Of a stretch of 10,832 nucleotides of DNA, positions 8,070-8,455 are shown in pieces. Both the position numbers and the translations under genes were made by a program. Each line of letters starts with the position of its first letter. Within the stretch, counting starts at the first letter, position 1. The DNA is from a virus. The notes beneath the pieces were generated by a model, which saw only the letters and a list, made by a program, of their open reading frames with translations, was not told where the DNA came from and did not search any database. The stretch lies in the IMG/VR virus record IMGVR_UViG_3300035208_008211; one strand, 5' to 3'.

Positions 8070-8455
8070 CTAGTCTTTTTACAGTCTATTCATTAATAGG
8101 TAGGTTGAGCCAATCCTTATCACAGAGAATCTTTTGGTACACGTATTCAGCGTACTTTCTTTTAGCAGCGGGAGGGGTCGGAACACTATATTTCTCAATC
8201 CGCCAGACATGACGCTTTGTACGGCGACTATATAACCCAGTGCTCGACTGTACCCCATGGCCAGCGTCATTGTGAATATATATATAAAAATATGAACTGG
8301 TCTTTGTCAGACCGGAGTTATCCTCAATCTCAATCTCACAATGGAAGAACTCCCTTGGACTCATCGGGGTCAATTACCTTAACATAGTATCACCTACTCA
8401 CTTTTAAGTGAAAGTGATCATAGTTCCCGTTGAGAGGATAATCCAAAAAGACTAG
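8070..8455. mobile_element. GC-rich island (visibly about 45-50% GC against about 30% background) bounded by 11-bp perfect inverted repeats: CTAGTCTTTTT at 8070-8080 and AAAAAGACTAG at 8445-8455.
   Basis: Read directly. It is a candidate small selfish or mobile insertion carrying the GIY-YIG-like ORF, or alternatively a long-stem structured RNA. I saw no target-site duplication. Confidence 0.3.
8086..8373 (-). CDS. Small ORF (about 92-95 aa) inside a GC-rich island. It is possibly a GIY-YIG (COG2827/T5orf172-like) nuclease-domain protein. The track start is TTG at 8373, and an ATG follows at 8364.
   Basis: SSYFYIYIHNDAGHGVQSSTGLYSRRTKRH resembles the GIY...YIG(S/T)T..L..R...H pattern of small GIY-YIG proteins, as I recall them. 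The match is weak. The locus might instead be a structured RNA. Confidence 0.35.
   Translation of the reverse strand: MTPMSPREFFHCEIEIEDNSGLTKTSSYFYIYIHNDAGHGVQSSTGLYSRRTKRHVWRIEKYSVPTPPAAKRKYAEYVYQKILCDKDWLNLPINE

Follow-up and report, generated by a model that had tools for sequence, protein, structure and literature searches.

The window analysed here, an entire contig of 10,832 nt with nearly all of its genes on the minus strand, probably carries a fragment of some 380-400 nt of a foreign, gene-dense element, of the kind found on contigs L243-L250 (hereafter donor-type), which has become fixed between a transglycosylase gene and rtcB. As such, it is a rather ordinary instance of gene capture by horizontal transfer, i.e. 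an orphan gene on a small remnant fragment, of a kind that is already known. The main result is a corrective one: the resemblance of the encoded protein to GIY-YIG nucleases, noticed by eye, and the perfect 11-nt inverted repeat around its gene, both reported in a first-pass annotation made from the sequence, fail testing. The fragment also links a low-GC contig, assigned to a Clostridia MAG bin, with an orphan gene-dense element of landfill and other metagenomes, and this link is a small lead for identifying the element. The coordinates of the features, and the sources of the contigs that bear a homologue, are given in Table 1.

Table 1. Features of the window around the island, and the donor-type contigs compared with it
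Feature	Position or source	Strand	Remarks
rtcB (RNA 3'-phosphate ligase)	6717..7961	-	PF01139, E 3e-110; downstream neighbour, same strand
Putative relic of the donor element's intergenic motif	8048..8085	-	Alignment A2 with L247; downstream edge of the putative captured fragment
Left arm of inverted repeat, CTAGTCTTTTT	8070-8080	.	Inside the putative relic intergenic motif
Small protein-coding gene	8086..8364	-	92 aa from ATG 8364; possibly 95 aa from TTG 8373
Putative remnant of the donor-type gene before the ORF (its 3' end)	8390..8428	-	Upstream edge of detectable homology
Right arm of inverted repeat, AAAAAGACTAG	8445-8455	.	Just past the upstream homology edge
Membrane-anchored protein with peptidoglycan glycosyltransferase domain	8553..10205	-	PF00912, E 1e-42; upstream neighbour, same strand
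Homologue-bearing contigs L243, L247-L250	Logan runs SRR27460153-59
Homologue-bearing contig L244	ENA
Homologue-bearing contigs L245, L246	JGI 3300014206, 3300028602
Repeated donor motif sites	L247 936-989, 1742-1759, 2136-2153, 2740-2793, 3332-3349; L243 341-385

Composition and genomic setting

A GC-rich island had been described at 8070-8455, between the transglycosylase and rtcB genes. Its location is borne out by the Pfam matches of both neighbours, the island sitting in the 591-nt gap (7962-8552) that separates them. It is also compositionally distinct, with a GC content of 41.5% vs. a window mean of 33.6%; the background had, however, been put too low, at 30%, and 44% GC is also reached by several other 200-nt stretches of the contig. 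The GC-richest stretch of 386 nt in the whole window starts at 8141 (43.8% GC). Most of the elevation is accounted for by one open reading frame (ORF), itself 43.8% GC. As for the remainder, a second, smaller bump (45-50% GC) is found at 8470-8552, between the stop codon of the transglycosylase gene and the edge of the putative captured fragment; it contains a palindrome, ATGCATCTGCAT, and a run, CCGAACGACCGACCGG, and showed neither homology to the donor-type element nor a significant RNA fold.

The codon usage of the ORF is atypical. Its GC content at third codon positions (GC3) is 0.46, vs. 0.19-0.25 in the rtcB, transglycosylase, NUDIX and MVP-like (major vault protein-like) genes of the contig, and its host-codon log-odds is close to 0, vs. 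0.21-0.36 for the host genes. In composition, the ORF is foreign to its host.

The junctions of the island are not an assembly artefact or chimaera, since they are reproduced in two contigs from other assemblies. The first (L241), from a separate ENA assembly, is 100% identical to window positions 7698-8717 and covers both junctions; the second (L242), also from a separate ENA assembly, is 99.9% identical to positions 8089-8820 and covers the upstream junction, its single mismatch being at 8504, outside the ORF. These two short contigs were the only close matches to the locus, no close relative being found in scans of GTDB genomes, IMG/VR and JGI metagenomes anchored on RtcB. The scans provided 240 loci (best RtcB 56-58% identical), none of which had DNA or protein similarity to the intergenic region or was syntenic with the other genes of the window. 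No empty site was seen, both ENA assemblies carrying the filled one.

Coding evidence and the predicted protein

Where a single ORF had been reported, the island holds three overlapping ones of 56-95 aa, and only the minus-strand ORF at 8086..8364/8373 is supported as a gene. Located 124 nt upstream of rtcB and on the same strand as both neighbours, it encodes a product of about 10.9 kDa (pI 8.6) that belongs to an orphan family. The 95-aa version (8086..8373) was used as phmmer query against 1.84 billion representative proteins, with three matches in all: P0001, 100% identical, 92 aa long and beginning at the ATG at 8364; P0002, a 112-aa protein 56% identical to the island ORF (E 2e-20); and P0003. 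The last one (1154 aa, E 3e-5, four stretches) was rejected as a homologue, the match being to a local hairpin of a repeated Ig-like domain (..VTDNSGLTATTPTFYINV), which leaves no real match beyond the first two in this set. A profile search of a 5.8-billion-sequence collection added nothing new to the family, which consists of two clusters at 50% identity. The 92-aa product is on record only through ENA gene calls. By exact look-ups, RtcB, the 95-aa ORF, the NUDIX protein and a 219-aa protein of the contig are not on record. In the NCBI record, the conserved 92-aa gene apparently falls in sequence without annotation, to judge from such look-ups.

A codon alignment of the window ORF with the P0002 gene (93 codons) showed 29, 28 and 56 differences at codon positions 1, 2 and 3, respectively, and different codons are used for 30 of the 51 residues identical between the two. 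Nei-Gojobori estimates were 0.41 for dN and 2.6 for dS (dN/dS 0.155), while in tblastx the sense frame reached 3.5e-24 vs. 2.6e-12 for the antisense frame. The ORF is thus a genuine protein-coding gene: the codon periodicity and the dN/dS ratio indicate a translated gene, and not an RNA helix, under purifying selection over the combined divergence of both lineages. Since only two divergent lineages of the protein exist, this selection is not assignable to the window's own branch, and the copy could be a recent intact passenger, functionless here.

Concerning expression, a promoter scan upstream of the ORF found nothing useful. On direct reading, the distance from an AAGG to the start codon is 12 nt for the ATG and 3 nt for the TTG, neither of which is ideal, and no convincing Shine-Dalgarno sequence was seen for the ORF; by eye, no sigma-54 promoter for rtcB was convincing either. 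Its transcripts may start at an unrecognised promoter or come from the transglycosylase gene by read-through, and they might also continue into rtcB.

The codon-periodic divergence also bears on another reading of the segment, that of a structured non-coding RNA such as a Y-RNA-like or tRNA-like molecule associated with rtcB, which we regard as very unlikely. The adjacency to rtcB, a gene that is co-operonic with Y-like RNAs in some bacteria, would suit such a molecule, as would the elevated GC content and the folding of the island, with z-scores of -2.5 on the minus strand (1 of 100 shuffles being as good) and -1.8 on the plus strand. The non-coding flanks, however, fold no better than shuffles (z -0.4 and -0.3), the substitutions follow the pattern of proteins and not of helices, and the homologous gene is not beside rtcB. 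Scans of 7962-8552 with Rfam (cmscan, E ≤ 1) found nothing and ARAGORN called 0 tRNA or tmRNA genes. Inside the transglycosylase gene, a weak Rfam match to Listeria rli45 was observed at 8980-9042 on the plus strand (31 bits vs. a gathering threshold of 60, E 0.026); it is probably due to chance.

The product of the ORF had also been thought to resemble a GIY-YIG nuclease. By its length (about 90-100 aa) and a by-eye succession of hydrophobic strand...RR...H...AEY, it does recall the small stand-alone GIY-YIG proteins (PF01541; COG2827/UPF0213) and T5orf172, but no HMM match to GIY-YIG (PF01541) or T5orf172 (PF10544) was obtained at E ≤ 10. In Pfam-A, hmmscan found no family for P0001, the window protein, at E ≤ 10, nor for P0002 at E ≤ 1; among the PHROG, NCBIfam and PADLOC profiles, neither the ORF nor its homologue had a significant match, the best being a PHROG with E 0.055. 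A profile search of all PDB sequences had no match at E ≤ 10, and the annotated phage and plasmid collections had none to the intergenic DNA or to the protein. In the alignment of the two lineages (A1), only the first GIY-YIG motif position, IYI, is common to both; at the second, one lineage has VQS and the other VDW, without Tyr or Gly, and the histidine that follows RRTKR is not conserved between them. Residues R47, R48 and E73 are invariant, among two lineages only, and their spacing can be forced onto the GIY-YIG pattern of an Arg in helix 1 and a metal-binding Glu later in the sequence, with R47/R48 placed by the structural model in or beside a strand and not in a helix.

In the AlphaFold model of the window protein (pLDDT 69, pTM 0.54), a C-terminal helix comes after four strands in succession, and the model of its homologue (pLDDT 54) has the same order of elements. 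The sheet of GIY-YIG domains is antiparallel and three-stranded, and helices are inserted after its second strand, before the third, as seen in the structures of I-TevI and of the N-terminal domain of UvrC. The predicted topology of the island protein (beta-beta-beta-beta-alpha) differs from that of GIY-YIG (beta-beta-alpha-alpha-beta-alpha), and no structural match to these proteins was obtained. With neither an HMM match, nor a conserved second motif, nor the fold, the proposed resemblance was abandoned.

In the predicted fold, a C-terminal amphipathic helix would instead pack against an antiparallel sheet of four strands, and a basic hairpin, SRRTKR..WR, is invariant. WGR, AP2 and Whirly-type modules likewise combine a basic hairpin with an antiparallel sheet that has a single C-terminal helix behind it. 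The island protein differs from them in having no Pfam match to WGR or AP2 and only 6-13% identity to WGR, AP2 and Whirly-type modules; for the WGR domain (PF05406), neither a profile match nor a strong structural match was found. These weak fold matches hint at nucleic-acid binding. Most likely, the protein would serve the donor element as a small accessory factor that binds either nucleic acid or some other protein, though this step is a weak one.

Homology with donor-type contigs

The donor-type contigs are 52-54% GC and dense with small same-strand ORFs. On them, the gene order 192 aa, ORF, 96 aa, 54 aa is kept, and no rtcB is present. The two JGI samples are from municipal landfills, according to passages in papers that cite these ids. 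None of the nine donor-type ORFs scanned had a significant Pfam match, and none of those tested a significant PHROG match. In IMG/VR, no relative of the ORF or of the 192-aa protein was found, the latter having only near-identical relatives. Rfam returned nothing on L247 and L248, which merge to about 7 kb with no closure into a circle. To call the element virus-like or plasmid-like would be a guess.

A 1-nt deletion (GGCGCCTTG -> GGCGCTTG) frameshifts the homologue of the island ORF in L244 (at about 1700-1760), L245 and L246, i.e. in three samples; the gene is therefore dispensable in the donor-type contigs. The 52-aa C-terminal half of the frameshifted homologue has been called as P0004, and intact variants (P0005-P0007) coexist.

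The donor-type contigs also contain a repeated, partly palindromic motif of about 45 nt, TGCAAAC..N..ATGATAGAGTCTATCCATG, ending in three bases that serve as the next small gene's start codon. With no Shine-Dalgarno sequence to be seen there, this arrangement would suggest leaderless or otherwise unusual expression.

Sequence comparison shows homology to this other element not only for the ORF but also for its non-coding flanks. On the downstream side, GTAAAAAGAC..ATCCTGATAGTGTCTATCCATT of the window aligns with GTGCAAAGAC..GTCCTGATAGAGTCTAATCATGG of L247 (alignment A2): after the stop codon of the ORF, the minus strand from 8082 down to 8048 reads GTAAAAAGACTAGATCCTGATAGTGTCTATCCATT, and the equivalent place in L247 reads GTGCAAAGACACGCAGGTCCTGATAGAGTCTAATCATGG. 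In a local alignment, 16 of the 18 bases of the motif core are identical to L247, a score equalled in 1 of 300 shuffles. Only one copy of the 18-nt motif, TGATAGAGTCTATCCATG, is present in the window (2 mismatches, vs. 0.01 copies expected), where the putative relic of the intergenic motif spans 8048-8069; L247 has three copies, all of them on start codons. Donor-type copies of the motif end on the ATG of the next gene; in the window this ATG is replaced by ATT, and the similarity ends there.

On the upstream side, the window from 8428 down to 8390 matches L247 2928-2966, the tail of the copy of the preceding gene, in a syntenic position (26 of 39 bases identical, equalled in 2 of 500 shuffles). 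Beyond it, homology may extend to about 8445; upstream of 8428, none to the donor-type element is detectable. The shortness of this upstream match (26/39) counts against capture as the best explanation. As aligned, the homologous block runs from about 8048 to 8428/8445, which is near the coordinates first given for the island, and is not bounded by the inverted repeat.

The atypical codon usage of the ORF, together with the homology that both ORF and flanks have to an unrelated element of 52-54% GC, argues that the island is a foreign insertion, and these two properties, with the reproducible junctions, place it among horizontally acquired gene fragments. The earlier proposal of a discrete foreign insert thus held, that of a self-mobile one did not. 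Compared with known acquired orphan genes and element remnants (genomic islets, cryptic remnants), the island has in common a discrete compositional anomaly, non-host codon usage, one small gene, homology to an unrelated element that includes non-coding flanks, and no mobility genes. It differs from typical remnants by being unusually small (about 400 nt) and by a donor that is not a recognisable phage, plasmid or IS, whose tested ORFs have no significant family match and whose motif ends on start codons.

Inverted repeat, probable capture and the rest of the contig

The two 11-nt arms, CTAGTCTTTTT and AAAAAGACTAG, are 100% complementary, and the inverted repeat is exact where it had been reported. 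It is, however, at the level of chance: a perfect inverted repeat of at least 11 nt was found in 21 of 500 dinucleotide shuffles of the intergenic gap, and one of at least 11 nt in 17 of 52 overlapping real 591-nt windows of the contig, which holds about 8 distinct pairs per 10.8 kb. Neither does it bracket the homologous block, the left arm being 22 nt inside and the right arm, judged to be a chance match, just outside. No direct repeats of at least 9 nt were found in 7900-8650, and hence no target-site duplication. By its size of about 380 nt, its exact 11-nt inverted repeat and its intergenic place, the island is like MITEs and other non-autonomous elements bounded by inverted repeats; it is unlike them in that its repeat is no better than chance and not terminal, in the lack of a target-site duplication, in being single-copy in the contig and in encoding a conserved protein.

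These observations leave little room for the miniature selfish element put forward in the first-pass annotation, i.e. an intergenic, self-inserting mini-gene for a GIY-YIG-type homing nuclease, bounded by terminal inverted repeats of 11 bp, and we hold it to be extremely improbable. The repeat is indeed exact and the segment foreign, but the former is explained by chance, with its left arm well inside the homologous block, no direct repeats stand at the edges, and a search for further copies in the contig returned the island once. Likewise, FYIYIH..G....T....RR...H and ..AEY..Q/K.I recall, by eye, the small COG2827-type GIY-YIG proteins, and R47/R48 and E73 are invariant in both lineages, but the Pfam and PDB profile searches above found no match, the YIG position is V-Q-S or V-D-W and the histidine differs between the lineages. 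Nor is the gene an insertion in the donor type, where it takes an ordinary place in a co-linear gene array, and the site is filled in the two ENA assemblies. The ORF is, moreover, conserved elsewhere as an ordinary hypothetical gene, an outcome named in that annotation, like a single copy, the lack of an empty site and the lack of a GIY-YIG HMM match, as speaking against such an element.

In the capture that we favour, a fragment extending from about 8048 to 8428/8445 would have been fixed in the low-GC contig of this Clostridia MAG bin, with a cargo of one intact gene for an 11-kDa protein, a stub of the preceding gene, and the donor motif up to the start of the next gene. The transfer would have been from the element to the host, because the flanking motif is multi-copy in the element and unique in the window. 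As neither a recombinase nor a nuclease is present, and terminal repeats and a target duplication are lacking too, the insertion would have occurred by illegitimate recombination and not by self-mobility. The proximity of rtcB is probably accidental, as the donor type has no rtcB nearby.

That the foreign fragment is a decaying, functionless remnant, with an ORF intact only through recent capture, is a serious possibility, though less likely than not. The relic motif is 16/18 identical while third codon positions differ at 60%, which is consistent with recent capture and a source distantly related to L247; neither a promoter nor a ribosome-binding site is clear for the ORF, its counterpart carries a frameshift in three donor-type contigs, and the MVP-like gene of the same contig is also split by a frameshift. 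On the other hand, the ORF is intact over 92-95 codons, a stop-free run with a probability that we estimate at about 0.003 per frame at this composition, and its sequence is identical in three assemblies. Its GC3 of 0.46, intermediate between that of the donor type (0.65) and that of the host (about 0.22), could mean a long residence during which the frame was kept.

A more far-reaching scenario, in which the captured gene encodes a small, new fold that binds nucleic acid and has been domesticated to head the rtcB RNA-repair transcription unit (e.g. as an end-binding or regulatory partner of RtcB) and the donor contigs are an unclassified virus or plasmid with its own promoter/start-codon motif, seems improbable to us. 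If true, the fragment would be the first clue to the host of that element.

As for the rest of the contig, eight of its twelve larger ORFs are without Pfam family, in the stretch 567-6108 (206, 127, 124, 146, 134, 117, 219 and 50 aa). Since such an orphan-rich neighbourhood is unusual for a bacterial chromosome, and no synteny was found in the 240 rtcB loci, the contig itself may be part of a mobile or viral region. ORFs of 181 and 188 residues, missing from the output of the ORF tool, run off the contig ends at 10290-10832 (plus strand, right end) and 1-566 (minus strand, left end); the right-end one and the transglycosylase gene are divergently oriented.

The MVP-like gene (2340-4518, minus strand) encodes a bacterial protein homologous to the major vault protein of eukaryotes (Pfam MVP_shoulder, E 8.5e-27; Vault_3, E 4.7e-7), and the protein is 100% identical to NCBI 'MAG: hypothetical protein WC942_05150 [Clostridia bacterium]'. 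The gene is apparently split by a frameshift into an ORF of 146 aa (4078..4518) and one of 591/615 aa (2340..4187), with an overlap of about 110 nt, and the same split was called in an independent assembly (L251). Among the best 120 of its roughly 2,620 relatives, most are 800-900 aa long.
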